From the IMG/VR virus record IMGVR_UViG_3300029314_000002, positions 5,460 to 69,459 of that record: a stretch of 64,000 bases of DNA. One strand, 5' to 3'. Origin of the DNA: a virus. Below the pieces are notes generated by a model. The model did not search any database. It worked only from the letters and a program-made list of their open reading frames with translations, and had not been told where the DNA came from. Position 1 is the first letter of the stretch, and every line of letters starts with the position of its first letter. This document shows, piece after piece, positions 4,947-43,762 of the stretch. The position numbers and the translations under genes were made by a program.

Positions 4947-4950
4947 GTCC

Positions 4951-5400: not shown

Positions 5401-5415
5401 TATTATGTCACCTTT

Positions 5416-7267: not shown

Positions 7268-7384
7268 GTGCAATTCTCCGTTCGGTTGCCAGCTCAGGGC
7301 GGGCTGTGCGGGGGTTTTGGGTCGGGGGCATATCCTACTACCCCTACTATCGTCCTGGCCCGTCCTGGTTCGTGCGTTGTGTCC

Positions 7385-7451
7385 ATTGACGGGCACAACG
7401 ACGGGCACAACGACGGGCACAACGACGGGCACAACGATAGTGCCCGTCAAT
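7385..7451. repeat. Centromere-like iteron array (parS/parH-type candidate)
   Basis: ACGGGCACAACG x4 in tandem, closed by an inverted copy (ATTGACGGGCA ... TGCCCGTCAAT), immediately downstream of the parA/RHH operon. Confidence 0.6.
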
Positions 7452-7458
7452 TGGGCCA

Positions 7459-7821
7459 TCACTTGAGTTTTTTTTCAATCTCCGGGGGAATCTCCAGAAC
7501 GTACTGGAAGCGCAATGTGCGTGCGCCGAGCGTGGACGCTTCTAGGAGGGCGCGGAGGGCGGGGTTGCCGCTGCGCAGTTCGGCCAGCGCCCAGGCGAGG
7601 AGGAAGCTGGCGATCTGGCTTTCTCCGGTGGATCGGTTGGCGGCCTCGCGTTCGACGGCGGCTTTGACGACCGGGGGGACATCGAGGCGGACGCGCGTGC
7701 GCGCGGTGTCGCGGCGTTCTTTGGCGGTGTGGGTGGAGCGGTTGGCGGCGGCGCCGTGCTGCCACTCGGCTACGGCGGGGTCAATGCGGAGGCCGCCCTG
7801 TCGCGTTGGTTTAGGCGCCAT
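7459..7821 (-). CDS. ParG-like ribbon-helix-helix partition adaptor
   Basis: RVRLDVPPVVKAAVEREAANRSTGESQIASFLLAWAL (RHH); overlaps the parA 3' end. Confidence 0.6.
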   Translation of the reverse strand: MAPKPTRQGGLRIDPAVAEWQHGAAANRSTHTAKERRDTARTRVRLDVPPVVKAAVEREAANRSTGESQIASFLLAWALAELRSGNPALRALLEASTLGARTLRFQYVLEIPPEIEKKLK

Positions 7822-8581
7822 GGGTGGTCTCCAGGTTTTCGAGGAGACGTGCGCCGACGCGCGTGAAGGCGGCGGTGACGGTGTCGGCGGGGGCGTGGCG
7901 GAAGACGGTGGTGCCGAAGCTGCACGCTTCGGTGACGCGGATGCTGAGGGGGACGGGGGGCCAGACGGTGGGGCCGAATGTGTCTACGAGTTGCCGCATC
8001 TGGTCTTGATGCTCGTTGACGCCCCTGCGGGCCATGTTGGGGATGATGCCGAGGAGGCGCGGGCCGTGGCCGTGCTGTTGGGCCATTTCGCGGCATGTCT
8101 GGGACATGAAGGCGACGCCCTCCAGGCTGAGGCGTTCGACCTGGGTGGGGGCCAGGACCCAGTCGGCGGCGTAGAGGAGTTCACGGAAGCCGGCGTTGCG
8201 GGAGGGGGGAACGTCTATGAAGACGAGGTCGGCTTCGCGGGTGAGGGGGCGGAGCATGTCGGCGAGCATGCCGAACGGTTTTGCTGTGGCGGCGAGGAAT
8301 GTGAATGCTTCGCCGGTGCGGTAGTTGCCGGGGAGGAGGCGCAGCGGCCAGCCAGGGACTTGACGCACCTGGCTGGCCGCCGGCCGGCCGACTACGAGCA
8401 TCTGGAATAATCCATCTTGCGTTGTGTCGCCATCGAGCAGCCATGACGAGGCGTTGCCTTGGGGGTCGGCGTCCACCAGGGTGACGCTGCGGCCGTGTTC
8501 GGCGGCGTAGACGGCGAGGTGGACGGCGAGGGTGGTTTTGCCCACGCCGCCCTTTTGATTTGCGACTGCGATGATTGTCAT
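7811..8581 (-). CDS. parA: ParA/Soj-family partition ATPase
   Basis: Deviant Walker A VANQKGGVGKTT; DADPQGN. Confidence 0.9.
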   Translation of the reverse strand: MTIIAVANQKGGVGKTTLAVHLAVYAAEHGRSVTLVDADPQGNASSWLLDGDTTQDGLFQMLVVGRPAASQVRQVPGWPLRLLPGNYRTGEAFTFLAATAKPFGMLADMLRPLTREADLVFIDVPPSRNAGFRELLYAADWVLAPTQVERLSLEGVAFMSQTCREMAQQHGHGPRLLGIIPNMARRGVNEHQDQMRQLVDTFGPTVWPPVPLSIRVTEACSFGTTVFRHAPADTVTAAFTRVGARLLENLETTHGA

Positions 8582-8702
8582 TACCGGTTTCCTTTTTTCT
8601 TTCGAGTTATTATTTCAGGTTTCAGGGGTTCAGGGTTGCCCCTGTGGGGTTGGTTGTCGCCCAGGCGGCCAGGTGGGCCAGGGGCGACCAGGTGATCCAG
8701 GG

Positions 8703-10094
8703 TCAGCCAGGCGGCTGTGGGGGGTCAATTTGCGCCAGTTGGAGCAGGGCGGGGGTGACGCGGCGGGCGTCGGTGGCGTGGCGGGGAACGGTGAGGAGTG
8801 CGAGCCGTTCCCACTTTTTAGCCAGTTGTTTGACCTGGTAGCCTGTCCAGCCTTCGACGGCTGCGGCCAGGCGGTTGCTGATGAATTGGCCGTCCAGGTT
8901 CTGGACGGCGTAGGCGACCAGGGCGCGCTCGCCTGGTGTGAGGCTGCCGGCGATGGCGTCGTCACCGGCTGCTTGGTGGCGCAGGGCCTGGGCGACGGCG
9001 AGGAGTTGGTCATCACCGAGGTGGTAGCTCTGCACGGGCTGGGGGGGGCCGTCGAGGCGGGCGAGGTAGCGGCCGGGCCGCGAGGCGGCGATGGCCTGGG
9101 CGCCTGGGCAGCCGGCGAGGCGGGCGGCGGCTTCGTCGGCGACGCGGAAGACGAGGCGGGTGGCGAGGTTGACGTTGACGGCGCGGGGGAGGAGGTCGAA
9201 GCGGGCATGTTGGCTGGCGACCCAGACGATGATGCCGGCGGAGCGGCCTTTGACGGCCAACCGGGTCAGCCCACGTGCGAGCGGCGATTTCTCGCCGGCG
9301 GTGAGGAGGAGGTCGAGGACTTCGTCAATGACGAGCCAGATGACGGGGAGGGGGGCGGTGGCGCGGCGGTTGTAGCCGGCCAGGTCGCGGGCGAGGGCGC
9401 GGGCAAGAAGATCGCCGCGCGCGTCCATCTGTGCGACGAGTTCTTCGATGAGGGCGGCGGCGCTCTCTTCGTCGTGGGCGACGGGTGCGAGGAGGTGGGG
9501 GGCGCCATCCCAGACGGAGAATTCACTGCGTTTGGGGTCTACGAGGGCCACCTGGACGGCGCGCGGGGTGGAGGTGGTGAGCACGCTGGCCAGGGCGGCG
9601 TGCAGGAGGGTGGATTTGCCGGAGCCGCTGGCGCCGGCTACGAGGGTGTGGCCCAGGGCGGGCAGGGTGCGCCACAGGGGGCCTTCGGCGGTGACGCCGA
9701 GGGGGACGATCAGCGGCTGCGGCGGCGCGGCGTCCAGGTCCAATGGGACGCGGCTCGGCAGGCGGGCGGGTGCGGGCGGCGGGGCGAGGTTGACGAAGTA
9801 GGAGATGCCGCTGCTGTTGATGCAGCGGATGGGGTGGCCGATGACGGTGCCGAGGTGGTGGATGAGGGTGGGGGATGTGAGGGCGCCGGCGGTGACTTTG
9901 CGCGGCAGGCGATGAACGTCTACCTGGAAGGACGCCCAGGGGCCGATGATTTCGGCGGTGCTGAAGCGGACTTCGACGAGGCTGCCGTCGTGGGCCTGCC
10001 AGCAGTGACCGAGGTCGCTGAGGCATTTGAGGATGAGTTCGCCGCAGCGTTGGGCTTCGGCGAGTGGGCTGTTAGTGGTTATGATCGTAGTCAT
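8703..10094 (-). CDS. FtsK/SpoIIIE-family DNA translocase
   Basis: Walker A GASGSGKST, Walker B VIWLVIDEV. Confidence 0.9.
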   Translation of the reverse strand: MTTIITTNSPLAEAQRCGELILKCLSDLGHCWQAHDGSLVEVRFSTAEIIGPWASFQVDVHRLPRKVTAGALTSPTLIHHLGTVIGHPIRCINSSGISYFVNLAPPPAPARLPSRVPLDLDAAPPQPLIVPLGVTAEGPLWRTLPALGHTLVAGASGSGKSTLLHAALASVLTTSTPRAVQVALVDPKRSEFSVWDGAPHLLAPVAHDEESAAALIEELVAQMDARGDLLARALARDLAGYNRRATAPLPVIWLVIDEVLDLLLTAGEKSPLARGLTRLAVKGRSAGIIVWVASQHARFDLLPRAVNVNLATRLVFRVADEAAARLAGCPGAQAIAASRPGRYLARLDGPPQPVQSYHLGDDQLLAVAQALRHQAAGDDAIAGSLTPGERALVAYAVQNLDGQFISNRLAAAVEGWTGYQVKQLAKKWERLALLTVPRHATDARRVTPALLQLAQIDPPQPPG

Positions 10095-24604: not shown

Positions 24605-25534
24605 TCAGGCGGTCGGGGCCGAGGCGTAGATGATCCAGGCTTGGCCGATCTGGTCGCCGCCCATGCGCGTTCGCCAGCGGGCGGGGAGGAGGGAGCGGCG
24701 CAGCTCGTAATTGACGGCGGGGGTGGTCTGGCGACAATGGTCAACCATGCCGCCGGCACGAGCTTCGATCCAGGCGGCGGCCTGTGCGAGCCGGTCGGGG
24801 CCGGCAACGATGTAGAGGCATTTGGGGGGTTTGCGGCCGTTGGCAACCATGATTTTGATGCCGGCCGTGTGGCTGGTCTCAAGGTAGTAGGCGATCACGG
24901 GCTGCGTGGCGATCGCCAGGGGTTGTGCGGCAATTTGCGACGCCACTTTCGGCGAGACCAAGCTGGTGAGCAGTTGCCCCATGGCTGCAGCGTCAATTTT
25001 ACCCCAGTGGGCGCCCCACTGAGCGACGAAGAGTGCATCTTCGCGCCAGTCGCCGCAGATGAGGTAAATCTCGTGGGCCTTGGGGTCTTCGGTGGCCTGT
25101 ACGATCTGGGCATAGCCATGCCCGCCGATGTGGGTGGGCTGCAGGACGTAGGGGACGCCGTTGACGATGGTTGCGGCCTGCATGATCTGGGCGAGGGTCA
25201 TGGCCTGGGCGGTGGGCGGTTGGGCGGCGAGGCGGGCGGCTTTGAGGGCGATCCAGCCGGCGACCTGGTGGGCGCAGGCTTTGCGTCCGTTGACCAGGGG
25301 GGCGTCAAACCTGGCGTCGTTGCAGTCGCAGCCGCTGCCGGTGATGTGATAGCGGCCGGCGACGGTGATTGCGCCATCTGGTGCGACCACGACTGCATCA
25401 GCCCGCACGAGATCAACGGCGGTGGCGTACCGGTTGCCAACCTTGGCTTCGATAGCCCTGCTGGCGAGAATCGCCTGTTGGACGGCGGGAGAGTTGCTTC
25501 GCTGCACGGCTTGGGGTATAATTTGGGTGCTCAT
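24605..25534 (-). CDS. SWIM zinc-finger protein
   Basis: CDCNDARFDAPLVNGRKACAH. Confidence 0.6.
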   Translation of the reverse strand: MSTQIIPQAVQRSNSPAVQQAILASRAIEAKVGNRYATAVDLVRADAVVVAPDGAITVAGRYHITGSGCDCNDARFDAPLVNGRKACAHQVAGWIALKAARLAAQPPTAQAMTLAQIMQAATIVNGVPYVLQPTHIGGHGYAQIVQATEDPKAHEIYLICGDWREDALFVAQWGAHWGKIDAAAMGQLLTSLVSPKVASQIAAQPLAIATQPVIAYYLETSHTAGIKIMVANGRKPPKCLYIVAGPDRLAQAAAWIEARAGGMVDHCRQTTPAVNYELRRSLLPARWRTRMGGDQIGQAWIIYASAPTA

Positions 25535-25610: not shown

Positions 25611-25639
25611 ACTATATCATACTATAGGCGATTTGTCAA
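25611..25639 (-). promoter_or_regulatory. Consensus promoter TTGACA-N17-TATAGT
   Basis: Minus strand TTGACAAATCgcctatagtatgaTATAGT; ~45-bp block shared with 13055..13100. Confidence 0.65.
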
Positions 25640-25688
25640 TCTCCGAAGCTGACGAAATACTGACAAGTTATTGGATGTCATACGCCCG

Positions 25689-25717
25689 ATTGACAGGGGT
25701 GCGACGTTATGATATAG
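25689..25717 (+). promoter_or_regulatory. Consensus promoter TTGACA-N17-TATAGT
   Basis: TTGACAggggtgcgacgttatgaTATAGT upstream of the RHH gene. Confidence 0.65.
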
Positions 25718-25735
25718 TTGGGGAAAGGGGGCAAC

Positions 25736-25969
25736 ATGTACAATAAGCGAGAGGATAGTTTTCTGTTTCAGGTCAGGGTGAAGTATGACCTGCACGAGGC
25801 GGTGATGGCGCTGGTGAAGGAGACAGGGATCCCCGCGGCGGCGGTGATGCGCCGTGCGCTGGAGAATTGGGCGGCGACGGGCGGAGTATTGCCGGTGCGG
25901 GTTGTGAGACCTGAGACCGGAGACCTGAGACCGGAAGAACTCCCTTCTTCCACGAAACCCGATCTCTGA
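25736..25969 (+). CDS. Ribbon-helix-helix regulator
   Basis: FLFQVRVKYDLHEAVMALVKETGIPAAAVMRRALENW; the C-terminus runs into GAGACC repeats. Confidence 0.6.
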   Translation: MYNKREDSFLFQVRVKYDLHEAVMALVKETGIPAAAVMRRALENWAATGGVLPVRVVRPETGDLRPEELPSSTKPDL

Positions 25970-26063: not shown

Positions 26064-26735
26064 TTAGAAGCCAAGTCCGCGCTCTTTGAGGGAGACCCAT
26101 CCGGGGTTGCCGATGATGATGTGATCGAGCACGTCTATGTCGAGCAGTTTGCCGGCTTCGACGATGGCGCGGGTGACGTTTACGTCTTCTGGGGAGGGCG
26201 AGGGGTCGCCAGAGGGGTGGTTGTGGGCGACGATGATGCAGGCGGCGTTGCGGCGGATGGCTGGGCGGAAGACTTCGGCAATGCGCACCCCCGCTGAGTT
26301 GACGCTGCCGATGGAGATGGTTTCGGTGCCGATGTGGCCGTTGCGGGTGTTGAGCAGGATGACGACGAGGTGCTCCTTTTCGTAGGTGCGCATGTAGAGG
26401 AGATGGTTGGCGGCATCCGCAGGGCTGAGAAGGGAGTCGCTGCGGTTGGGGGAGGTGAGGACGGCTCGCCGACCAAGCTCCAGGGCGGCTTTGATGCGCG
26501 CGGCGCGCGTGGGGCCGATGTCGGGGATGGCGGTGAGTTCTTCGAGGGTCATGTTGATGAGACCGGATAGGTGCCCGGCTCGGGCGATGAGGGCGCTGCT
26601 GGTGTCGAGGGTGGCACAGCCCAGGATGATTTGGAGTAATTCGCCGGCGTTGAGGGCGCCAGTGCCGAATGTTTCGGCGCGGTAGATGGGCCTTTCGGTG
26701 GCTGGCAGGTCACGCACACAGAGCTTGGCGGTCAT
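26064..26735 (-). CDS. radC: RadC-like JAB/MPN domain protein
   Basis: HNHPSGDPSPSPED JAMM motif; N-terminal helix-hairpin-helix region. Confidence 0.9.
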   Translation of the reverse strand: MTAKLCVRDLPATERPIYRAETFGTGALNAGELLQIILGCATLDTSSALIARAGHLSGLINMTLEELTAIPDIGPTRAARIKAALELGRRAVLTSPNRSDSLLSPADAANHLLYMRTYEKEHLVVILLNTRNGHIGTETISIGSVNSAGVRIAEVFRPAIRRNAACIIVAHNHPSGDPSPSPEDVNVTRAIVEAGKLLDIDVLDHIIIGNPGWVSLKERGLGF

Positions 26736-26780
26736 GAGAGTGATTCCTTTCTGACTGGGTTCGATTGAACTGACGGTCTC

Positions 26781-26809
26781 ACTCTCTCACAGGCAGATGG
26801 GGGTGTCAA
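26781..26809 (-). promoter_or_regulatory. Cassette promoter A: TTGACA-N17(TGa)-GAGAGT with conserved leader
   Basis: One of four near-identical promoter/leader units (see 28284, 30464, 31612). Confidence 0.5.
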
Positions 26810-26822
26810 TCTCTTGACGATT

Positions 26823-27098
26823 CGAGTTTATCCCTGAGTTTTGGAAGGTTGACGGGAGTGGGTTTGGGATACGGCAGAGGTGGGGCGCCGATGTGGCGCG
26901 CGGATGCGCGAAAGAATGCTTGCCCAGGAACTGCTGAGAGGCGCTATGAGCGTCTGCGGCATAGGACGGTATGGTGTGAGGGCGATGATGCCTGGGAGCG
27001 CCCAGGAGGTAGCCGGTTGGCGGAGGAATGACGATGGGGTGAAGGTGAGAGGTTTCAGTGAACGCGGGCAGATGCGCCTGGGGGCATCTGTCGGGGAA
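26823..27098. repeat. ~270-nt conserved non-coding element, copy A
   Basis: Alignable to 30506..30765 at roughly three quarters identity by eye, with a 1-nt indel that breaks every frame. Confidence 0.75.
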
Positions 27099-27100
27099 GA

Positions 27101-27134
27101 CACAGGCGGCGACATGCAGATGTCGCCGCCTGTG
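27101..27134. terminator. Hairpin ACAGGCGGCGACAT-N-ATGTCGCCGCCTGT (copy A)
   Basis: 15-bp stem; the T-rich run (TTGTTT) lies on the plus strand; near-identical to 30890..30922. Confidence 0.6.
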
Positions 27135-27158
27135 TTGTTTGGGTAGAGAGGGGCAGGT

Positions 27159-27782
27159 TCAATCGAAAAGGGTGGGGTTTTCGGGGAATTCAGGGAACAA
27201 TTCGGGGGACGCGGCAGATTTGGATGTGCGCTTGCCCCAGGTGATTTCGATGAAGTCGTTCTGCCAGTAGTGGGCTGCGCGATCGGTGTAGGGATCGGGG
27301 GTTTCGGAGGGCGGGTTGAGTTGACAACCGATTTCGAGCCAGTGCTGGACGCCACGGGCCATTGAACGGCCGCGGCCGGTGTGTTTGTCCAGGGCGTAGT
27401 CGGGGACTTCAAGGCGCTTGCCGTGCAGCCGGTCCTGGTGAACGGCGCATTGGAAGTGGTCGGCCAGCCTGGATTTGGGGGATCGGCACATGACGAGGAT
27501 GGTGTTGGCGAGGATGAGCCGGGCGCTGGAGTCTTTGCCCTCGCTGCGCATCTCGAAGTAGAGGGTGCGCTGGTTGGGGACAAGGGCGAGCAGGCCGGGG
27601 TTGGCGATGCCGATGTCTTCGTTGGCGATGATGATGAGCCGGCGCCAAAGGTACGTTTCGAACTTGGGGATGAGTTCGAGCGACCAGTACATGGCAGCTT
27701 CTTCGTTGGCACGGCGAATCTCTTTTTGCAGGGACGAGATTACGTCGAACAGGTTGTAGTGGTTTTGGGTGACGATGTTCAT
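27159..27782 (-). CDS. Stand-alone MgsA_C/RarA-lid-like helical protein (no AAA+ core)
   Basis: YNLFDVISSLQKEIRRANEEAAMYWSLEL...RRLIIIANEDIGIANP. Confidence 0.65.
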   Translation of the reverse strand: MNIVTQNHYNLFDVISSLQKEIRRANEEAAMYWSLELIPKFETYLWRRLIIIANEDIGIANPGLLALVPNQRTLYFEMRSEGKDSSARLILANTILVMCRSPKSRLADHFQCAVHQDRLHGKRLEVPDYALDKHTGRGRSMARGVQHWLEIGCQLNPPSETPDPYTDRAAHYWQNDFIEITWGKRTSKSAASPELFPEFPENPTLFD

Positions 27783-27804
27783 GTGTGATCTCCTTTGGTG
27801 CGAA

Positions 27805-27833
27805 AGTTTCGCACGCCTGTTCTAATATGTCAA
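27805..27833 (-). promoter_or_regulatory. Promoter TTGACA-N17(TGc)-GAAACT
   Basis: The -35 hexamer overlaps the stop of the upstream gene; palindrome GTGCGAAAgTTTCGCAC in the leader. Confidence 0.45.
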
Positions 27834-28237
27834 TCCTGATCCGGGAGCATGAGGGTGATGACGGGTTCGGCGTTGTCGCCGGGGCCAACGACGAGCTTGA
27901 AGGTGAAGATTTCACGGTCTTCGATGCCGGTGATTTTGACCTGGAATAGCACTGTGGCGGGATCGGGGCGGGCGATGATGTAGCGCAGGCTCATCCACAT
28001 GATGTCGTTCCAAATGCCGGTCAAGTCGTTGTGGAGAAGCGGGTTGTCTGCGGCTTGCTCGATGATGAAGAAGACTTCGGCGGTCATGGCGATGGGGTAT
28101 TTGTAGGTTTGCCGGCTGATCTGTCCGAGTGGGCCGGTGGAGGCATCTACGAGAACGCCGTCGGCGATGGCTTGTGCTCTGCTGTAGCTGAAGATGAGAT
28201 CGGCGTCTGTCCAGGGGGCGGTGGGCGGGATGTTCAT
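27830..28237 (-). CDS. Hypothetical protein of a plasmid/ICE-associated family (name not recalled)
   Basis: Start MNIPPTAPW; IFSYSRAQAIADGVLVD ... GPGDNAEPVITLMLPDQD. Confidence 0.6.
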   Translation of the reverse strand: MNIPPTAPWTDADLIFSYSRAQAIADGVLVDASTGPLGQISRQTYKYPIAMTAEVFFIIEQAADNPLLHNDLTGIWNDIMWMSLRYIIARPDPATVLFQVKITGIEDREIFTFKLVVGPGDNAEPVITLMLPDQD

Positions 28238-28283
28238 GATTTTGCTGTCCTTTCTGGCTAGATTTGATTGAACTGACAGGTTG

Positions 28284-28312
28284 ACTCTCGCACGAGAGGC
28301 ATGAGAAGTCAA
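28284..28312 (-). promoter_or_regulatory. Cassette promoter D: TTGACT-N17(TGc)-GAGAGT with leader
   Basis: Shares AGAGATTGAC, GAGAGT, GTCAGTTCAATC and CAGAAAGGA blocks. Confidence 0.5.
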
Positions 28313-28405
28313 TCTCTTTGGTGGGCGAGTTTTCACGCAGGTTTCCACCAGTTTTTGTCGCCGACCGGCCCTGGCTGGGGGCAGGGCCGGCCGCGTTGGA
28401 ATGGG

Positions 28406-29416
28406 TCAGGGGCGGAGTTGGCTGCCGGAGCGGAGGGGGCTGGGGCCGTGCGGCGGGTAGGCAAAGCCGGCTTCGAGTATGGCCTGGTAGAAGCTGCCGA
28501 TGATAGGGGCGATGGCCTGCAGGTGCGGGTCAGGGTTGGTGAGCAGCTCATGGATGTAGGTTTCGATGCTGAGGCCGATTGAGCCTACGCGGCGCATTTT
28601 GGGGATGGCGCCATCCACGGGGAAAACGGGCTGCTGCCAGGCGGTGCGGCTGGCGGCATGGTCGTCGAGGGTTTGGGTGATGAAGAAGTCAAGGTTGAAC
28701 ATTGTGTCCTGGGCTTGTTCGGCGCGCAGGCGGTTGCAGATGGCGCGGAATTCGCGCAGGAGGGGGCGCTCGGAGGTGTTCAGGTAACGGAAGGCGATGA
28801 ATTGGCGGTTGCGGTCGAGATCGGCCATGCACTCGCCGAATTGGACGCCGACGATGTTCTGTTGGACAAGGCGTTGTACGTCGGGGATGAGGTGCAAGAG
28901 GCTGAGGCGGGCCTGGATGCGTTTGGGGGTGACTTTGGCGGTGCGGGCGAGATGGGCGATTGTCCAGTCGAATTGGTCGAGGCGCTTTTGGTAGGCGCGG
29001 GCTTCGTCAATAGGGTCTATGTCAACGCGATGGACGTTTTCGATGAGCATGATGGCGCTGGCTTGCTGATCGGTGAGGTCGCGGATGATGGCGGGGACGG
29101 TGGGCCAGGCGAGCAGGCCGATGGCGCGCCAGCGGCGTTCGCCGGCGACGATCTGGTAGACGGCGGGCCAGGTGGCGCCGGCGCAGTCGCAGTATTCGGT
29201 GGGGCGGTCGCCTGTGCAGGTGATTTGGCGGCAGCGTGGGCAGTGGTAGAGGGGGCGGACGGTGATGGGTTGGATGAGGCCTTCGGCTGCGATGCTGTCG
29301 GCGAGGGTCTGGAGGTCTTCGGGGCGGAAGACGGTGCGGTCGTTGTCGCCAGTGCTGATCTGGTGGTAGGGGATGGGGGTGATGGTCGGCTGGACTGTGT
29401 GCGAATCGGCAGGCAT
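28406..29416 (-). CDS. ParB/Srx-family protein with zinc-ribbon insert
   Basis: GLIQPITVRP ... IVAGERRWRA ... MLIENVHR; CPRCRQITC...CDC. Confidence 0.85.
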   Translation of the reverse strand: MPADSHTVQPTITPIPYHQISTGDNDRTVFRPEDLQTLADSIAAEGLIQPITVRPLYHCPRCRQITCTGDRPTEYCDCAGATWPAVYQIVAGERRWRAIGLLAWPTVPAIIRDLTDQQASAIMLIENVHRVDIDPIDEARAYQKRLDQFDWTIAHLARTAKVTPKRIQARLSLLHLIPDVQRLVQQNIVGVQFGECMADLDRNRQFIAFRYLNTSERPLLREFRAICNRLRAEQAQDTMFNLDFFITQTLDDHAASRTAWQQPVFPVDGAIPKMRRVGSIGLSIETYIHELLTNPDPHLQAIAPIIGSFYQAILEAGFAYPPHGPSPLRSGSQLRP

Positions 29417-29488
29417 GGTCAGGTCCTTTCATGGTGAACGATGGGGCCAGCAGCGGGGGGCTGCTGGCGACTGAGAATGAATCGGGGA

Positions 29489-30418
29489 TCAATGCGGACG
29501 ATTGGCGAACACGCTGATGCAGCGTTGCTGGAGTTCGGTAACTTTTTCGCCGTAGGCGATCCAGGTTGCTTTGGGCCAGCCGTAGGGGATTCGGGCGCTG
29601 CCCGGTTTTCGCTGCGTCTGGCCGAGGGCTTGTAGAAGCTCGTCGCCGGCCTCTTGCCATTCTGGGCAGCACAGCTGAAAATCGAATTTGGGTGATTGGG
29701 GAACCTGGGCGGCACGGTGGCAGAGGCCGAGGGCGGTGGTGATGTAGCCGATGGCTTTGATGCTGTTCAGGGTGGCGGCGAAGATGCGAAACTCGATTGT
29801 CTGTTTGCTGTTGAACAGGTTGCACAAGTTGAGCGTGTGGTAGCGATCTTCGATTTTGCGCTCTTTGACCAGGTCAAGATCGTCGGTTGTGGCGATGAGC
29901 ATGTTTTCGTCACGGGTTTTGACGGTTTTGCAGTAGTCGTTACGCATGCGCTCAGGAGAGTTGATGGTGGCGTAGATGCCGAATTCGTGATGGCTGACCA
30001 GGTTGAGGATGCGATGAAGGAAACGCACCATGACCGGCGATGTTTCCGGGGATTCGCCCAGCAGGGAGGCGATGCCTACGTGTACGTGGAAGCCGCAGGT
30101 GCTGTTGATTTTGGCTTCTGCGGCGTTGAGCAAGTCGAAGATTTGGACGATTTCTGAGATGCCCTGACTGCCGTGCAACACCGGGGAGACGATTTCGAGC
30201 GGCGTGTAGCCGGCGGGACAGTTGCGCAGGGAACTATCGGCCTGGGTTTCCCACAGCGGCGGGAAGGGGGCGGGAAGGGCGTACCCGTGATGGTAGCGAC
30301 CAATGCGGATGGCGTTCTCCCACAGATAGGAGTTGGGGAGGAAACACTCGATCTCTACGCCGAAGGTGATTTGCTCGGCGTCAACGGTGATGAAGCGGGA
30401 CTTGTTATTGGCGGCCAT
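29489..30418 (-). CDS. Amidoligase_2-type (GS-like carboxylate-amine ligase) enzyme
   Basis: FGVEIE, LEIVSP, CGFHVHVG, TIEFRIF; start MAANNK (30418) fits the cassette RBS spacing. Confidence 0.75.
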   Translation of the reverse strand: MAANNKSRFITVDAEQITFGVEIECFLPNSYLWENAIRIGRYHHGYALPAPFPPLWETQADSSLRNCPAGYTPLEIVSPVLHGSQGISEIVQIFDLLNAAEAKINSTCGFHVHVGIASLLGESPETSPVMVRFLHRILNLVSHHEFGIYATINSPERMRNDYCKTVKTRDENMLIATTDDLDLVKERKIEDRYHTLNLCNLFNSKQTIEFRIFAATLNSIKAIGYITTALGLCHRAAQVPQSPKFDFQLCCPEWQEAGDELLQALGQTQRKPGSARIPYGWPKATWIAYGEKVTELQQRCISVFANRPH

Positions 30419-30463
30419 GGGTGACATTCCTTTCTGACTGGGTTCGATTGAACTGACGGTCTC

Positions 30464-30492
30464 ACTCTCTCACCGACAAATCGGGGGGTCAA
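30464..30492 (-). promoter_or_regulatory. Cassette promoter B: TTGACC-N17(TGa)-GAGAGT with leader
   Basis: Leader identical to copy A over about 45 nt. Confidence 0.5.
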
Positions 30493-30505
30493 TCTCTGTG
30501 CGGCA

Positions 30506-30765
30506 CGAGTTTATCCCTGAGTTTTGGAAGGTTGGCGAGGTTGATTTTGGGATACGGCAGAGGTGGGGCGCCGATGTGGCGCGCGGGCGCTCTGAAAGTG
30601 CTCACCCAGGAACTGCCGGAAGGCGCCATGCGCGTGCTGGGCATAGGACAGTATGGCGTGAGGGCGATGGCACTTGAGAGCACCCATGAGCCGCCGGTTG
30701 GCGTTGGGGATGAAGGGAGATGTGCTTGGTGAACGCGTGTGGATGCACCTGGGGGCATTTGTGAG
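30506..30765. repeat. ~270-nt conserved non-coding element, copy B
   Basis: See 26823..27098. Confidence 0.75.
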
Positions 30766-30829
30766 GGCGTTGCGGTGAATTGGTTTGGGGGTTTGGTGGC
30801 TTAGATGTATAATTGGCGGGAGCCTTCTT

Positions 30830-30870
30830 GTCCTTTCTGGCTGTGATTGAACTGACATTCTCCATGACTA
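30830..30870 (-). repeat. Orphan leader remnant (copy E) without ORF
   Basis: GTCAGTTCAATCacagcCAGAAAGGAca, followed by no start codon. Confidence 0.6.
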
Positions 30871-30889
30871 GGGACGATGATAAGAGGCG

Positions 30890-30927
30890 ACAGGCGGCGA
30901 CATGTCACATGTCGCCGCCTGTTTTTG
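30890..30927. terminator. Hairpin ACAGGCGGCGACAT-N-ATGTCGCCGCCTGT (copy B)
   Basis: 14-bp stem followed on the plus strand by TTTTTGTTT. Confidence 0.65.
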
Positions 30928-30933
30928 TTTGGT

Positions 30934-31563
30934 TCAGGAAAGGGCGAGGAAGGAGGCGAAAAGGGCGGTGGATGTCGGGGACTGCAAGATTTCAGGGTGC
31001 CATTGTACTGAGATGACGGGCAGGCGGGGGTGTTCGATGGATTCGACGATGCCGCCGGCTGTGGCGGCGATGCGCCAGCCGGCGGGGACATCGGCGACGG
31101 CCTGGTGGTGCAATGAGTTGACCTGACAGGTGCGCGTCTTGAGGATGCGGCTGAGCCGGCTGCGAGAGACGATGACGATGTCGTGGATGTTCGAGCGATG
31201 TTCGATGCCAGTATCCTGCCAGATGTCCTGGTGGAGGGTGCCGCCGGCGACGGCGCAAATCATCTGGTGCCCGCGACAGATGCCCATGATTGGTTTGGCG
31301 TCAGCCAGGGCAAGGGTGGCGAGGCCGTATTCGAGCGGATCGCGGCGGGATGCGACGGGGTGGGCGAAGCGCACGCGGGTATTGTAGTAGGATGGGTGAA
31401 TGTCGGCGCCGCCGGGGAGGAGGATGTGCGAGGCCTTTTCGTACATTTTGTACGGGTTTTCGTTGGGGGCGAGGATGTGGACGCTGGCGCCGAGGGTGCT
31501 GAGTCTCCAGCAGATGTGGTCCGTGAAGGAGCCTGGGGTGACGAGGACATGCGGTTTGACCAT
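30934..31563 (-). CDS. Class-I glutamine amidotransferase (peptidase C26 / PuuD-like)
   Basis: GICRGHQ nucleophile elbow; VQWHPE. Confidence 0.85.
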   Translation of the reverse strand: MVKPHVLVTPGSFTDHICWRLSTLGASVHILAPNENPYKMYEKASHILLPGGADIHPSYYNTRVRFAHPVASRRDPLEYGLATLALADAKPIMGICRGHQMICAVAGGTLHQDIWQDTGIEHRSNIHDIVIVSRSRLSRILKTRTCQVNSLHHQAVADVPAGWRIAATAGGIVESIEHPRLPVISVQWHPEILQSPTSTALFASFLALS

Positions 31564-31611
31564 GAGAATGATTCCTTTCTGATCTGTGAATTCGGTTGAA
31601 CTGACGGTCTC

Positions 31612-31640
31612 ACTCTCTCACAGGCCAATCGAGGTGTCAA
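31612..31640 (-). promoter_or_regulatory. Cassette promoter C: TTGACA-N17(TGa)-GAGAGT with leader
   Basis: Same architecture as copies A and B. Confidence 0.5.
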
Positions 31641-31724
31641 TCTCTGGGCGGTACGAGTTTATCCCTGAGTTTTTTGGGACTGATTTGGGATACGGGAAAC
31701 GAGTTTGGTCGACGCGCGTGCGCG

Positions 31725-31772
31725 AAAAAACCAGAAGCCTCGTGAATCGGTGTTCACGAGGCTTCTGGTTTT
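31725..31772. terminator. Bidirectional terminator
   Basis: AAAAAA-CCAGAAGCCTCGTGAA-tcggtg-TTCACGAGGCTTCTGG-TTTT. Confidence 0.8.
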
Positions 31773-31795
31773 GTGGGGGGGCGATGGGCGCCCGT

Positions 31796-32338
31796 TTATG
31801 CGGCGCTGGGCGCTGCAAGGATGGTGTTGTTGGGGCCAACGCTAAGGCCGGCCGGGGTGAGCAGGATGTCGAGCAGGGTCTGGTGATCTTGGGTGGACGT
31901 TCCGATCTGCTCTGCTATGCCCTGGCCGATCATTTGGTAGGATGTGACGGCGCCCCCTCGGGCCAGTTCGATGAGGACGTTTTGTCCGGTATATGTGGTG
32001 TACATGACGTTTCTCCTTATTTTTCTTCTTGTCTTGCCACCTGACCGCCCAGGTGGGCAATCGCCGCTAGCAGGCAGGCCAGCCGGCGTTGATTCAATTC
32101 TGTGCCCACGAAGGGCTTGCCTGCCCGGTAGGCTGCCAGCCCTACCAGGCCGCGGCCCATGCAGCGGCGCCGGGCTGGGCGTGATTTCAACCGCCAGCAT
32201 GGCCGCGATGCGATCCATCACGTCCATGCGGACGGCGATCTGCGCCAGGGCCACGTCGAGCGGGACGCCCAGGCGGCGAGCCAGGTTGTCGAGCCGGGTG
32301 GCCGTATCTGCGGATAGGGTGAGCGTGCGGTCGTTCAT
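31796..32338 (-). CDS. RHH-type N-terminus + P/G/R-rich linker + 69-aa C-terminal module (which may also be made separately from ATG 32005)
   Basis: RTLTLSADTATRLDNLARRLGVPLDVALAQIAV; in-frame internal AAGGAG-N6-ATG at 32005. Confidence 0.5.
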   Translation of the reverse strand: MNDRTLTLSADTATRLDNLARRLGVPLDVALAQIAVRMDVMDRIAAMLAVEITPSPAPLHGPRPGRAGSLPGRQALRGHRIESTPAGLPASGDCPPGRSGGKTRRKIRRNVMYTTYTGQNVLIELARGGAVTSYQMIGQGIAEQIGTSTQDHQTLLDILLTPAGLSVGPNNTILAAPSAA

Positions 32339-32346: not shown

Positions 32347-33345
32347 CTATAGCGGAATCTCTGCCATCATCTGGTCGCGGGCTTTGCCGAAGTTGAGGGT
32401 GGTCTCCGGGATGCCGGCGAGGAGTTCCTGCGCCTGCTGGATCAGCAGGGACAGCTCGGCGCGCGGCGTTTCTCGAAACGGAATGCGCTTGCTGTATTGG
32501 TAGTTGATGTGCATGTCGAAGATATGAATGTCTAGCGTCGTCTGCCCGGCCAACTTGCGTAACAGGGCCAGATCGTGCGCCTGGTCTGGGTTCGCCTGGC
32601 TTGGATTGAGAAAAGTCTCGAACTTGAGCGGATGGCCCGGCTGATCCCTGATCTCCAGCGCCAGGCGGATCACGGCGCCGGCGTCAGGGTAGAGGCCAAG
32701 CATGGTCTGGAACGCCACCGGCACGCCGGGGCGATGTGCGCTTTGTGCGTCTTTCCGTTCGCACTTGACGATGATGGCGACCTGGTCGTTCACCTCCATC
32801 GCTACGGCGGTCGCCTCCGGCCACATGCGCAGCACCTGCGCCACATTCACTGGTAATGAGACTGACATAGGTTCCTCTCCTTCGATGAGTCTGTAGATGC
32901 CGGCCGACCGATTGCCGGCGCCAGTCGTTTCGGCACGCCGCCATAGACGTGACGGCAATGTGATGTTGTGCTGCTCGACGCGATCGCCGGGTTGCACGGG
33001 CGGGCGGCCGGCCATCGTGCCGCGCACGCCGCCAGGGCGGTCGGAGCGCGGGGCGCGGTCAACGACGGTCGAGAGGGGGGTCGCAACGCCTATGTCATGA
33101 ATTGGCACATCAAGGAGCAGATCAATCGTGAGTTTGGTGTGCCGCTTCCCTTCGTCCCCGGAGAGGACGTGAGCGTTGTCGCCATCGTCCCAGCCGATGA
33201 GGGCCTTCCAGTATTGTCCGGGACGCGCAGACTCCAGATGGGAGCCGTTGCGCGCGACGATGAGCAGCCGGCGCGGCGGGTTGGCTGCGTAGTAGTAACG
33301 GCGGGCGCCATCTATGGTCTGCTCGCCAGTCTTGATGACACGCAA
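32347..33345 (-). CDS. Hypothetical protein; in-frame internal start at 32868 (173-aa product) has a strong RBS
   Basis: AAGGAGAGG-N5-ATG precedes MSVSLPVNVAQ. Confidence 0.5.
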   Translation of the reverse strand: MRVIKTGEQTIDGARRYYYAANPPRRLLIVARNGSHLESARPGQYWKALIGWDDGDNAHVLSGDEGKRHTKLTIDLLLDVPIHDIGVATPLSTVVDRAPRSDRPGGVRGTMAGRPPVQPGDRVEQHNITLPSRLWRRAETTGAGNRSAGIYRLIEGEEPMSVSLPVNVAQVLRMWPEATAVAMEVNDQVAIIVKCERKDAQSAHRPGVPVAFQTMLGLYPDAGAVIRLALEIRDQPGHPLKFETFLNPSQANPDQAHDLALLRKLAGQTTLDIHIFDMHINYQYSKRIPFRETPRAELSLLIQQAQELLAGIPETTLNFGKARDQMMAEIPL

Positions 33346-33448: not shown

Positions 33449-33495
33449 GCATTGACGAATGCTTGTTACGTAGTTGTATGAGATCAGGAGGGTGT

Positions 33496-34209
33496 ATGTC
33501 GGTTGATTTTGGGGGTATGCGCGTGGTGAAGGCGAATGATCTGCTGCCGGATGAGCATAATGCAAATCTGGGGACGGATCGGGGGCGCGGGATGTTGGAT
33601 AAGTCGCTGCGCGATTTGCGGGCAGGGCGTTCGATCCTGGTGGATCGGAATGGGAAGGTGATTGCCGGCAATAAGACGCTGCAGAGCGCAGCCGGGGTGG
33701 GGATTGAGGAGATCATCATTGTGCCAACGGACGGGAGCCGGCTGGTGGCTGTGCAGCGCACCGACCTGGATTTGGACACAGACGCCGATGCTCGCGCCCT
33801 GGCCTATGCCGATAATCGCGTGGCCGAGCTTGATCTGGTGTGGGACATCGAGCAGTTGATGCGCGACATCGAGAGCGGCGTGCAGCTCGATGGCTACTTC
33901 TACGATGATGAGGTGGCCCGGCTTATCGAGGGCATCATCGAGGACGAGAAGGGGGATAAAGCCAAAAAGGCGGGCGGTGACGCGGCGCCGGCGATGGCGT
34001 TGCAGCCGTTCGAGCATTACGACTATGTGATGCTGGTGTTCAGGAATCAGATGGACTGGACGAAGGCCGTGTCGTTCCTGGGCATTGACCGGGCGGCGTT
34101 CGATATTGGGAAGGGCCGGCGCAAGGTTGGGATGTGCCGGGTGATTGATGGCGCGAGGGCGATAGATAAATGGGAATCAGGGTCGTCATTCCAAGTAAGA
34201 GCCGAGTAG
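33496..34209 (+). CDS. ParB-like nuclease-domain protein
   Basis: Start MSVDFGG (GGAGGG RBS); LLPDEHNANLGTDRGRGMLDKSLRDLRAGRSILVDRNGKVIAGNKTLQSA. Confidence 0.7.
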   Translation: MSVDFGGMRVVKANDLLPDEHNANLGTDRGRGMLDKSLRDLRAGRSILVDRNGKVIAGNKTLQSAAGVGIEEIIIVPTDGSRLVAVQRTDLDLDTDADARALAYADNRVAELDLVWDIEQLMRDIESGVQLDGYFYDDEVARLIEGIIEDEKGDKAKKAGGDAAPAMALQPFEHYDYVMLVFRNQMDWTKAVSFLGIDRAAFDIGKGRRKVGMCRVIDGARAIDKWESGSSFQVRAE

Positions 34210-34901
34210 GGGATTGCCGCACCGCGCTTGCGCTGTTTCCTGGGGCCACGGTTGTGGTCAATGAGGAGCAGGCGCAGCAGTATGAGGTGCTGGGGGCGCC
34301 GCTGCTGGCGCACCCCAAAGACTTGTGGGGGATTGGGCCGCTCAAGAATTGGATTCTGGATCATGTGGATGATGAGTGTGTGTTCATCGTGGACGATGAT
34401 GTGTACCAGGTGCGCTCGCCGGTTGGTTCTCCGACCAGGTCACATGTGATTCGTGATCCAGAGGCGATTCGGCAGTTTGTGGAGAATACGGCGGAGATTG
34501 CGCGGGGGATTGGGGCGCCTGTGTTTGGTTTCGATCAGACGGGCGGGGATACGCGTAAGTTCAGGCCGCAGGACCCGATGAGGTTTTGCGGGTGGGTGGG
34601 TGCGGCGATGGGGATCGTTGGGCGGGAGATTCGTTTCGATCCTGAGTTGCGGATTCGGGCGGATATTGATTTTTGTCTGACGGCGCAGTTGCGCCGGCGG
34701 GTGATTGTGATGGACGGGCGATTTTCGTTCATTCACAGGAAGCGGTGGAGTTATCCGGGAGGAAATAGCCTGAGCCGCAGCGGGAAGCGGAATCAGGCGG
34801 AGTTGGCTTATCTGCAGCGAAAGTGGGGGGAATGGATTACGGTGCAGAATTCGGCGACGACGACGCTGATTGTGGTGAATGTGGAAAGGAGATGGCGATG
34901 A
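34170..34901 (+). CDS. GT-A-like glycosyltransferase candidate
   Basis: VVIPSKSR ... ECVFIVDDDV (DxD-like); family not verified. Confidence 0.5.
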   Translation: MGIRVVIPSKSRVGDCRTALALFPGATVVVNEEQAQQYEVLGAPLLAHPKDLWGIGPLKNWILDHVDDECVFIVDDDVYQVRSPVGSPTRSHVIRDPEAIRQFVENTAEIARGIGAPVFGFDQTGGDTRKFRPQDPMRFCGWVGAAMGIVGREIRFDPELRIRADIDFCLTAQLRRRVIVMDGRFSFIHRKRWSYPGGNSLSRSGKRNQAELAYLQRKWGEWITVQNSATTTLIVVNVERRWR

Positions 34902-36166
34902 CGCGCGTGTGCGTGATTGGGCTTGGGTATGTGGGGACGGTGGTGGCGGGGTGTCTGGCGGCAATAGGACATCGGGTGATGGGGGTGGAGAAGGATCGGC
35001 AGCGAGCGGATGATTTGCGGGAGGGCCGGCTGGCGGCGGCAGAACCGGGGTTGGGTGATTTGTGGGCGAGGGCGCTGGCGGGCGGGGCGCTGACGGTGGA
35101 GGATTCAATTGGGTATGCGGTGGAGCGGTGTGATGTGGTGATGTTGTGTGTGGGGACGCCTGCGGTGGCGGGCGGTGGGTTCGATTATGGGGATCTGCGG
35201 GCGGGATGCGAGGAGGTTGGGAGGGCGTTGGCGAATCAGGCGGAACGGCGCTTGGTGGTGGTGCGGAGTACGGTGACGCCGGGAACAACGCGCGGGGTGG
35301 TGGTGCCGGCAGTCGAGCGGGCTGCAGGGAAACGCGCGGGCGATGGGTTTGGGGTGATTTATAATCCTGAGTTTCTGCGTGAAGGGTATGCGGTGGGGGA
35401 TTTTATGCGGCCTCCGTTCGTGGTGATTGGGGGGGACGATGCGCAGGATCGGGCACAGTTGCGGGAGTTGTATGTTGGGGTTGATGGGCCGCTGGTGGAG
35501 ACGGCGGTGGAGACGGCGGAGCTGGTGAAGTTGGTGAGTAATGTGTGGCACGCGTTGAAGGTGACTTTTGCGAATGAGATGGGGCGGATGAGTCGCTCGC
35601 TGGGGGTGAACGGGCAGGAGTTGATGGAGATTTTTTGCCGTGATGAGCGGTTGAATATCAGTGCTGCATACCTGCGCCCTGGTTTTGCGTTTGGGGGGCC
35701 GTGTTTGCCGAAGGATGTGCGGGCGTTGATGGGGTTGGGGGCGCAGCGCGGGCTGATGTTGCCATTGTTGGAGGCGGTGCTGCCGAGTAACGATGTGCAT
35801 GTGGAGCGCGCGGCGCAGGTGGTGAAGCAGACGCGCGCGGAGCGGATTGGGGTGATTGGTTTGGCGCACAATCAGCATACGGGTGATCTGCGGGATAGTC
35901 CGGCGCTGCGGTTGATTGGGTGCTTGACGAATGGGGAGCTGCGCCGGCGGGTGCGGGCGTTCGATGAGTCGGTGCCGGTGGCGCCGGTGAGAGACGAGGC
36001 GCAGGTGGAGGTTGTGGGGTGTATAGAGGATGTGGTGCGGTGGTGCGAGGTTTTGGTGGTGACGACGAAGGTTGATTATGGGCAATTGCGGTTGCGGCCT
36101 GGGCTGTTGGTGGTTGATTTGACGCGCGGTGATGAGGGTGCGTTTTTACAAATGGGGGTAGCGTAG
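34898..36166 (+). CDS. ugd: UDP-glucose/GDP-mannose 6-dehydrogenase family enzyme
   Basis: VCVIGLGYVGTVVAGCLA Rossmann; GFAFGGPCLPKD catalytic Cys; ATGA overlap with the upstream stop. Confidence 0.9.
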   Translation: MTRVCVIGLGYVGTVVAGCLAAIGHRVMGVEKDRQRADDLREGRLAAAEPGLGDLWARALAGGALTVEDSIGYAVERCDVVMLCVGTPAVAGGGFDYGDLRAGCEEVGRALANQAERRLVVVRSTVTPGTTRGVVVPAVERAAGKRAGDGFGVIYNPEFLREGYAVGDFMRPPFVVIGGDDAQDRAQLRELYVGVDGPLVETAVETAELVKLVSNVWHALKVTFANEMGRMSRSLGVNGQELMEIFCRDERLNISAAYLRPGFAFGGPCLPKDVRALMGLGAQRGLMLPLLEAVLPSNDVHVERAAQVVKQTRAERIGVIGLAHNQHTGDLRDSPALRLIGCLTNGELRRRVRAFDESVPVAPVRDEAQVEVVGCIEDVVRWCEVLVVTTKVDYGQLRLRPGLLVVDLTRGDEGAFLQMGVA

Positions 36167-43629: not shown

Positions 43630-43762
43630 AAGTGCAAAGTGCAAAGCGCAGAGTGCAGAGTGCAGAGTGCAGAGTGCAAAGCGCAAAGTGCAGAGTGCAA
43701 AGTGCAAAGTGCAAAGTGCACAGTGCAAAGTGCACAGTGCAAAGTGCACAGTGCAAAGTGAG
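43630..43762 (+). repeat. Heptamer array AGTGCAR, about 19 units
   Basis: gtgcaaa/gtgcaga/gtgcaca units fill the protease-decoration gap. Confidence 0.9.

Follow-up and report, generated by a model that had tools for sequence, protein, structure and literature searches.

We analysed a 64,000-nt stretch of viral DNA (IMG/VR record IMGVR_UViG_3300029314_000002, positions 5,460 to 69,459; hereafter the window) and, within it, a minus-strand island of accessory genes that begins with radC. Taken together, gene identities, synteny, a shared promoter and genomic position indicate that the island is very probably one half, inverted here, of a "pre-terminase" module that is conserved and co-regulated. 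The invariant core of the module consists of a TAGT-family glycosyltransferase (GT), a ParB-like protein that has the ParB N-domain but no helix-turn-helix (ParB-N-only), and a protein that corresponds to the lid and C-terminal region of the RarA/MgsA ATPases (MgsA_C-only). Recurrent add-ons are RadC with a full ParB, an amidoligase with a glutamine amidotransferase (GATase) or a gamma-glutamyl cyclotransferase-like (GGCT-like) gene, a UDP-glucose dehydrogenase (UGDH), sulfotransferase-like and NAD-epimerase-like genes, and DUF6573. The module belongs to a phage clade whose hosts are probably Chloroflexota/Anaerolineae, with the core also occurring in Microbacterium cluster EC phages. As to its function, we favour a co-regulated DNA glycosylation or hypermodification pathway, that is, counter-defence by self-modification, to which we give a probability of about 0.45. 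A previous sequence-only reading had seen in the island a hot spot of separate, early-expressed counter-defence or host-takeover genes of the kind found in the leading regions of plasmids and integrative and conjugative elements.

Loci were fetched around homologues of the MgsA_C-only protein (145 in all, 65 from IMG/VR and 80 from metagenomes) and searched by tblastn with the window proteins. TAGT homologues were found in 63 of these loci and ParB-N-only homologues in 43, followed by full ParB (18), RadC (15, mostly paired with the ParB gene), the amidoligase (10), UGDH (9) and DUF6573 (4); de novo clustering of open reading frames (ORFs) ranked the neighbours of the MgsA_C-only gene in the same way. 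When loci with at least 5 kb on both flanks were considered, a TAGT gene lay within 5 kb of the MgsA_C-only gene in 35 out of 46. The association is reciprocal: in a search starting from TAGT, the MgsA_C-only gene was present in 19-20 of 25 loci and a ParB-N-only gene stood beside TAGT in 23. Moreover, the linkage of the three genes holds at 25-59% identity and extends to 56 cultured Microbacterium phages. The recurring strings are ParB-N-only-TAGT-MgsA_C, MgsA_C-ParB-N-only-TAGT, and a convergent arrangement in which MgsA_C faces TAGT-ParB-N-only, always just before TerS, TerL or the portal gene. Clustering also brought up, by eye only, GGCT-like (beside the amidoligase), NAD-epimerase-like and sulfotransferase-like genes as recurrent neighbours.

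The closest relative, IMG/VR 3300037504_000618 (L016), carries a near-complete set of these genes on one strand, in the order amidoligase-GATase-ParB-small ORFs-RadC-ParB-N-only-TAGT-MgsA_C-three lysis-like ORFs-UGDH-TerS-TerL. Compared with this arrangement, the block in the window lies in inverted orientation, has its genes in a shuffled order and has gained DUF6573 and two unique ORFs; within the window itself, the island is inverted relative to the ParB-N-only, TAGT and UGDH genes. The island is missing from the nearest terminase relatives, L004 (77% TerL identity) and L006, and is therefore an accessory segment, as the sequence-only reading had supposed. In cultured phages the core is represented by gp82-86 of Microbacterium phage Shotgun, which encode a ParB-like protein (5e-15 against its window counterpart), a hypothetical protein, a GT (6e-28), a UGDH (gp85, 4e-14) and an MgsA_C-only protein labelled "AAA-ATPase" (9e-17). 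A tblastn search of GenBank phages returned 57 records for the GT and 84 for the MgsA_C-only protein, with 56 Microbacterium records in each; among the matches listed, every record common to both searches is a cluster EC phage. At the DNA level, no similarity was found between the island and GenBank phages.

Gene identities were assigned by scans against Pfam, PHROGs and NCBIfam, and the six genes from radC to the GATase gene are all on the minus strand (Table 1). The MgsA_C-only protein begins at the lid: its Pfam match covers positions 4-119 of PF12002 only and there is no P-loop. An AlphaFold2 model made with 30 homologues (pLDDT 92) is all-alpha, and Foldseek aligned it solely to C-terminal fragments of RarA/MgsA (2r9g, 3bge, 3pvs, 8g28 and 3ctd), with a probability of 1.00 and E values of 4e-7 to 1e-4 for the first four. 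The AAA+ proteins RarA, MgsA and WRNIP1 are thus homologous to it in sequence and fold over the lid and C-terminal helical region, but they possess an AAA+ core with Walker A and B motifs; the island protein is devoid of the whole core and is not a RarA enzyme. It belongs to a family of 246 homologues of about 200 amino acids (aa), and an identical protein is encoded on a wastewater-metagenome contig (ENA ERZ965188 k127_68809).

RadC scores above the NCBIfam equivalog cut-off (NF000642; 196.6 versus 180) and retains an intact JAMM motif, HNHPSGDPSPSPED, conforming to HxHx7Sx2D as read from the translation. In the island ParB the GERRWRA box of the CTPase-type N-domain is intact and a Cys4 insert (CPRC...CDC) is present, the latter found only in the window and in L016; the NCBIfam model parB_part (TIGR00180) matches above cut-off and PRTRC_parB below it (6e-28). 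Neither a ParA gene next to this ParB nor a parS site was identified. Amidoligase homologues stand beside a GATase in L016 or a GGCT-like gene in L046-L074. The GATase also matches the Pfam GATase family (1.2e-20), and both a GICRGHQ nucleophile motif and a WHPE motif are readable in its translation; its homologue in L016 is 52% identical and overlaps the amidoligase stop codon. These results bear out what the sequence-only reading had said of RadC/JAB, the RarA lid without an ATPase core, the ParB with a "zinc ribbon", the amidoligase and the GATase.

DUF6573 corresponds to a protein that the same reading had placed in anti-restriction neighbourhoods, and this stood in part. It has 391 homologues. 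Among plasmids it occurs in 193 records (136 of them conjugative), amid runs of small unknown genes; on a Thermobacillus plasmid the distance to radC is about 3 kb, and in small phages with an archaeo-eukaryotic primase (L183) the gene directly follows an ArdC-like gene. It also adjoins MgsA_C homologues in phages (L171 and L047/L069), an adjacency that the reverse search from TAGT showed as well. The C-terminal motif GPGD..EPVIT.MLP is invariant or nearly so in an alignment of 35 sequences. The AlphaFold2 model (pLDDT 88.6) had no significant fold match in PDB or BFVD, and the sequence had no PDB match. On present sequence evidence DUF6573 would be the block's best candidate for a stand-alone effector.

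The 180-aa ORF upstream of the GATase gene had been called a ribbon-helix-helix (RHH) regulator, a call that found no support: there was no profile match and no BLASTP alignment to the RHH_1 ORF of the window, and the beta-alpha-alpha pattern in residues ~5-45 is a visual impression only. Nothing was found for this ORF in Pfam (E <= 0.05), PHROGs, NCBIfam, PADLOC or PDB, nor was a homologue found in 170 related loci. An alternative 57-aa frame inside it recalls the FxGxG/...FIG.E C-terminus of N6/N4 methyltransferases and aligns weakly with the window's own methyltransferase (E 0.003). This frame is possibly a decayed methyltransferase remnant, in which case the 180-aa ORF would be partly spurious. 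Against PADLOC 2.0, the only match of the island proteins to a defence family was weak and generic, JAB for RadC (2.5e-4); known anti-defence families were screened as far as Pfam and PHROGs include them.

Outside the island, the ParB-N-only protein is ParB-like by PHROGs and has a conserved C-domain that is not a helix-turn-helix. Its profile matched in PDB only the N-domain of ParB, Spo0J and Noc (E 8e-10), and PADLOC reported an N-terminal MTase_II match. The TAGT profile matched no PDB sequence. The UGDH gene, with a three-domain Pfam match, lies directly before TerS and TerL.

An element of about 85 nt occurs four times in the window, only in the island and always in the orientation of the gene that follows, where none would be expected by chance. 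The four copies lie 17-30 nt upstream of RadC, DUF6573, the amidoligase and the GATase. Each has TTGAC(A/C/T), a 17-nt spacer ending in TGn and an invariant GAGAGTGAG-type box, after which come a 40-45-nt leader, the Shine-Dalgarno sequence AAAGGA and the start codon ATG. An iterated nhmmer profile built from these copies recovered the element in relatives: six copies in L092, five in L016, four in L027, three each in L026 and L134, and one each in L017, L018, L021 and L081. These copies too are gene-oriented and precede, by 17-60 nt, genes for amidoligase, ParB, RadC or MgsA_C or small unknown ORFs; the genes that follow them differ in order and content from one relative to another, as the sequence-only reading had anticipated for its conserved leaders. 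No copy was found by nhmmer upstream of terminase genes in the relatives of the window. Exact and degenerate leader patterns had given no match in IMG/VR, metagenome and genome collections; since nhmmer later recovered the motif, those patterns were too strict. Across phages the consensus reads AAACTCGTG-N~12-AAnTCGTG(a/c)TTGACA-N17(TGn)-GAGAGTGAG, and precisely the stretch from -35 to +1 is conserved as a core in phages with diverged flanks. In the window and its closest relatives, two AAACTCGTG-like boxes abut the TTGACA -35 and the leader is 25-45 nt long. Because two direct boxes abut the -35 and the -10 is weak, the sequence suggests an activator-dependent promoter that requires a DNA-binding factor. 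One candidate for this factor is the island ParB with its helix-turn-helix, as an analogue of KorB and other regulators of the ParB family. The repeated promoter is a clade trait, and this argues for one predicted regulon rather than independent cassettes.

The claim that every unit is individually promoted and several individually terminated needs qualification on both counts. Four element copies exist as a sequence feature, but the ParB and MgsA_C-only genes have no copy of their own and lie 72 and 47 nt behind the upstream gene; they are therefore probably co-transcribed with it, giving four predicted units, [GATase], [amidoligase-ParB], [DUF6573-MgsA_C] and [RadC]. Five stable hairpins (-23 to -42 kcal/mol) follow each unit and the 180-aa ORF, four with z-scores of -4.7 to -9.5 and the one after ParB with -2.6. 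Only the hairpin after the 180-aa ORF has a sense-strand U-tract (-42.1 kcal/mol) and is the island's only canonical terminator. Three others carry the T-run on the opposite strand, so these hairpins may act bidirectionally or block antisense transcription. A structured non-coding RNA in the two ~350-nt intergenic direct repeats of the island was considered and rejected, as the terminator hairpin accounts for their folding z-scores (-4.9 and -3.7). Indels distinguish the two copies, no consistent ORF is common to them, and there was no evidence of an encoded peptide. Beyond the promoter core, the repeats have no homologue in related loci.

What might such a module do? PF20691 includes the T2/T6 beta-glucosyl-HMC alpha-glucosyltransferase, the founder of the family, which adds a second glucose to glucosyl-hmC (PMC13216743, PMC13390438), and the window GT scores above the gathering threshold of this family. 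T-even phages make 5-hydroxymethylcytosine pre-replicatively; a pathway of this kind was not found in the window. A further parallel is provided by the clusters described by the Saleh laboratory, in which a 5mYOX/TET-JBP dioxygenase, a ParB activator and GTs, with or without a GATase, kinase and AADT, carry out post-replicative hypermodification (PMC8256090, PMC13229309, bioRxiv 10.1101/2023.12.21.572611). In hypermodification loci of phages the commonest neighbours are GTs, ParBs and terminases, and GATases are listed as hypermodification machinery (PMC13229309). With these clusters the module shares a TAGT-family GT, an adjacent ParB-like N-domain protein without a helix-turn-helix, a position next to the terminase, a GATase and sugar-nucleotide enzymes. 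Phage ParB-like proteins with N- and C-domains but no obvious DNA-binding domain activate thymine dioxygenases (PMC13229309). The window's ParB-N-only protein resembles them in architecture, with an N-domain and a non-helix-turn-helix C-domain, but no 5mYOX was found alongside it. Further differences are that the MgsA_C-only protein is a constant third partner and that RadC, full ParB, Amidoligase_2 and DUF6573 ride along. No paper in the literature searched ties an MgsA_C-only protein to phage DNA modification.

We infer DNA as the substrate, as well as the chemistry, the roles of the accessory proteins and the timing of expression. In the pathway we propose, UGDH would supply UDP-glucuronate and the TAGT enzyme would transfer the sugar, so that phage DNA becomes decorated with it. 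The ParB-like and MgsA_C-only proteins may serve as partners that target the machinery to DNA or the replisome, or activate it, with the MgsA_C-only protein favoured as a constant accessory subunit. The amidoligase and the GATase/C26 hydrolase might add or trim amide-linked groups; a glutamine-synthetase-like amidoligase with a C26 gamma-glutamyl hydrolase-type amidotransferase recalls the ligate-and-trim pair PuuA/PuuD. The modified genome would then escape host nucleases. The same enzyme pair, Amidoligase_2 with a GATase or gamma-glutamyl cyclotransferase, is known from phages and mobile genetic elements and is annotated in LUZ24-like, tf, Pseudoalteromonas and gut phages (PMC3890496, PMC3517423), and in Christensenellales phage NatCom_6392 it lies beside a ParB-like gene and the terminase. 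Unlike in those systems, the pair in the window is within the TAGT/MgsA_C module and under its shared promoter.

Several observations weigh against DNA hypermodification. No TET_JBP/5mYOX or thymidylate-synthase-type hydroxymethylase, and no C5-methyltransferase, was detected among the annotated genes and 131 further ORFs of at least 100 aa in the 64-kb window, with about 5.4 kb of the source contig lying outside the search; a hidden 5mYOX among the ORFs of unknown function found no support. About 65% of phage GT contigs are without such neighbours, and the authors judge the GTs of these less likely to act on DNA (bioRxiv 10.1101/2023.12.21.572611). Between the window GT and the T-even enzyme the distance is large, and a tblastn search at 1e-3 did not recover the latter. 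Location before the terminase could in part stem from a common accessory niche and not from a common pathway, above all for RadC, ParB, the amidoligase and DUF6573, each of which is present in just 3-25% of loci. On plasmids, stand-alone MgsA_C proteins have other, unrelated neighbourhoods. Finally, in 17 metagenome loci without TAGT (among them L110, L115, L133, L136, L139, L144, L145, L150 and L158), the MgsA_C-only gene directly follows a gene that Pfam assigns to DUF5131, radical-SAM-like; this suggests that enzymes of another kind, too, can be partners of a RarA-lid protein. The DUF5131 product is a three-Cys, radical-SAM-like protein of the "Gp37/Gp68" type.

A variant that dispenses with the missing enzymes is that the ParB-N-only, TAGT-like and MgsA_C-only proteins form a self-contained, undescribed modification system needing no 5mYOX or thymidylate-synthase step, which we consider unlikely. 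The acceptor would be new, either on DNA or on some other macromolecule associated with replication, and the RarA-lid protein would tether or activate the GT at forks or at single-stranded DNA and its binding protein (SSB), as T4 alpha-GT is connected with the replisome. The amidoligase with GATase or GGCT-like protein, UGDH and the sulfotransferase-like protein would be interchangeable tailoring enzymes yielding lineage-specific sugar-acid or amide decorations.

That the island is instead a set of independent early effectors, as in leading regions, each inhibiting a host factor, appears fairly unlikely to us. On this view host RarA would be poisoned or titrated by the MgsA_C-only protein, DUF6573 would act against restriction, and RadC and ParB would protect or process incoming DNA. 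The plasmid distribution of DUF6573 and its place beside an ArdC-like gene agree with this, as do the patchiness of the add-ons among relatives and the predicted promoter of every unit. The C-domain of E. coli MgsA (3pvs) serves in oligomerisation, so a dominant-negative effect of the MgsA_C-only protein is conceivable. Leading-region islands are likewise runs of small accessory genes, and in the leading-region data of Samuel et al. 2024 (PMC11541004) ParB regulators are among the largest families and are enriched, as are orphan methyltransferases; RadC and amidoligases, which the sequence-only reading had also placed in early-entering regions, are not prominent in these data. Yet the MgsA_C-only gene is tightly and reciprocally linked to TAGT and ParB-N-only over a wide sequence range, so that a free-standing RarA mimic, as had been suggested, is not the simplest reading. 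The amidoligase and GATase are enzymes that require a substrate pathway, and they recur with ParB and RadC in the same module. In the relatives, the genes form one operon-like string running into the terminase genes, and the poor -10 with upstream repeat boxes does not point to immediate-early, factor-independent expression. The island proteins matched no known defence-related families in PADLOC, and the library scans found no SSB, PsiB, ArdA, KlcA or Acr families, with no search aimed at single-stranded-DNA (Frpo-type) promoters. Unlike a leading region, moreover, this is a conserved synteny group with enzymes in a tailed phage, not a collection of unrelated inhibitors in an oriT or transfer context, and the recognisable anti-restriction genes of the window (Lar and Mom) lie outside it. 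Mimicry or titration by separate cassettes thus probably does not hold for the core genes, but since DNA self-modification is itself counter-defence, the broader theme may survive.

It is also doubtful that TAGT and UGDH glycosylate a target other than DNA (virion proteins or a host envelope polymer), with ParB, RadC and the RarA lid as an unrelated DNA-maintenance or recombination set that merely shares a genomic niche and regulon. Actinobacteriophages do glycosylate virions with phage-encoded GTs. The window encodes plasmid-like maintenance functions (ParA, FtsK/SpoIIIE and a second integrase), and a base-hydroxylating enzyme was found neither there nor in most phage GT contigs (bioRxiv 10.1101/2023.12.21.572611). 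On the other hand, the ParB-N-only gene, which flanks the GT so regularly, is a known partner type of DNA-modifying enzymes (PMC13229309); the PF20691 enzymes so far characterised act on DNA, and the island ParB has no ParA beside it. Least probable, in our judgement, is that the ~85-nt elements and ~350-nt repeats are recombination linkers, or remnants of small mobile elements, that shuffle cassettes and are not promoters. It is true that the two repeats bracket a 3.3-kb block, that a decayed leader fragment remains nearby and that gene order after the shared element varies between relatives. However, a consensus -35, a TGn-extended -10-like box at a fixed 17-nt spacing, Shine-Dalgarno and ATG at a fixed distance, a constant gene orientation and a core conserved from -35 to +1 are features of a promoter, and a promoter could serve as a recombination substrate as well.

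Phage hypermodification loci with GT and ParB are known, as are phage pairs of amidoligase and GATase, mobile elements that carry RadC and ParB, and promoter motifs repeated in phage genomes. In the literature searched, we did not find a description of the three-gene core with a RarA-lid-only protein and without a dioxygenase, of its add-ons or of its promoter. In roughly two thirds of phage GT loci no base-modifying partner can be recognised; the module gives this "orphan" class a recurring three-gene core, candidate tailoring enzymes and a dedicated promoter type. Since cultured lytic Microbacterium phages carry the core, the question is directly testable. The module also provides a first functional context for RarA-lid proteins that stand alone and are regularly mislabelled "AAA-ATPase" or "RarA", and it shows that DUF6573, common on conjugative plasmids, circulates in phages beside ArdC and this GT module.

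Table 1. Features of the window, with positions counted from its first nucleotide
Feature	Position	Strand	Match or remark
RadC (UPF0758_N/HhH + JAB/JAMM)	26064-26735	-	PF04002 4e-40, 136.9 bits
MgsA_C-only protein, 207 aa	27159-27782	-	PF12002 1.3e-13, 51.7 bits > 27
DUF6573 protein	27830-28243	-	PF20213 7.6e-21, 75 bits > 27; ends ...GPGDNAEPVITLMLPDQD
Full ParB (ParB_N + HTH_ParB)	28406-29416	-	ParB_N 3.3e-21, HTH_ParB 3.6e-9
Amidoligase_2 (glutamine-synthetase-like COOH-NH2 ligase)	29489-30427	-	1.1e-21, 78.3 > 22
Class-I GATase/Peptidase_C26 (gamma-glutamyl hydrolase type)	30934-31563	-	Peptidase_C26 5.9e-38, 131.3 > 20.5
180-aa ORF	31796-32338	-	internal ATG with strong Shine-Dalgarno at ~32004
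57-aa alternative frame	32017-32190	-	inside the 180-aa ORF
ParB-N-only protein	33463-34209	+	
TAGT-family (PF20691) glycosyltransferase	34170-34901	+	Pfam 8.8e-11, 42.5 bits > 27.5
UDP-glucose/GDP-mannose dehydrogenase (UGDH)	34823-36166	+	
Promoter/leader copy 1	26761-26842	-	upstream of RadC; -35 TTGACA 26804-26809, TGn+GAGAGT 26781-26786
Promoter/leader copy 2	28264-28344	-	upstream of DUF6573; most diverged copy
Promoter/leader copy 3	30444-30525	-	upstream of amidoligase
Promoter/leader copy 4	31593-31673	-	upstream of GATase
Direct repeat A	26745-27091		~350 nt, 81% identical to B; contains promoter copy 1
Direct repeat B	30428-30762		with A brackets the amidoligase-ParB-DUF6573-MgsA_C block
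Decayed leader fragment	30829-30857		
Back-to-back near-consensus sigma-70 promoters	25611-25718 (switch region to 25969)	both	TTGACA-17-TATAGT with TG
Plus-strand gene order	33.4 kb onward	+	ParB-like, TAGT glycosyltransferase, UGDH, TerS, TerL; further on portal, N6/N4 methyltransferase, major head protein, tail genes
Non-structural genes	~33.3 kb down to 13 kb	-	include Sak4-like AAA_24 gene, tyrosine integrase (+ strand), CI/Cro-like pair, ParB-methyltransferase fusion
309-aa protein	24605-25534	-	
332-aa protein	32347-33345	-	upstream of island
DUF6884	4951-5400	-	slightly under cut-off
Restriction-alleviation protein Lar	5967-6350	-	39 bits > 28.6
Mom-family protein	6557-7462	-	29.1 > 27.1
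AAA ATPase	1320-2135		
RHH_1	2808-3125		
Second tyrosine integrase	3605-4585		
ParA	7811-8581		
FtsK/SpoIIIE-type ATPase	8703-10094		
Tandem arrays	25906-25935, 43630-43760, 54889-54964, 56847-56902, 62119-62169, 63189-63353, 63596-63764		

The window derives from a wastewater phage that is tailed and temperate; TerL, portal, major capsid protein and integrase are all encoded. Its host is probably a Chloroflexota bacterium, because the closest relatives of the terminase and of the MgsA_C-only protein come from Chloroflexi/Anaerolineae metagenome-assembled genomes. At the border of the island, a divergent promoter pair looks like a genetic switch; an 83-aa ORF driven by its plus-strand promoter matches RHH_1 weakly (E 0.017) and ends at a hairpin shared with RadC. 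Rfam and tRNA scans across the window found nothing.

Lar, Mom and DUF6884 make up an anti-restriction/base-modification cluster (4951-7462, minus strand) far from the island. The left end of the window (1320-10094) resembles a separate maintenance/transfer module or a second element. Downstream of the switch region, a 309-aa protein has a CxC...CxH pattern that by eye, without support from a hidden Markov model, recalls a SWIM zinc finger; its gene precedes a HAD-like gene and the Sak4-like AAA_24 gene. Locus searches starting from the 332-aa protein that flanks the island on its other side, or from the amidoligase, found no relatives. The 332-aa protein has two domains, neither from a Pfam family, and 168 homologues, in most of which the domains stand apart as proteins of ~190 and ~166 aa; one 5505-aa protein contains 14 repeats of the C-domain.

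Tandem-repeat arrays of 7, 9 and 14 nt (AAGTGCA, GGAGACC/GGAGATT and TGGACAGGA) are intergenic, among the structural genes and just downstream of RadC, with related heptamers at several sites. GC skew on the plus strand is strongly positive (~0.2-0.5) over nearly all of 1-64000. The coding strand flips at ~33.4 kb, yet only the AT skew reverses sign there; the GC bias is therefore strand-wide and not tied to coding direction.

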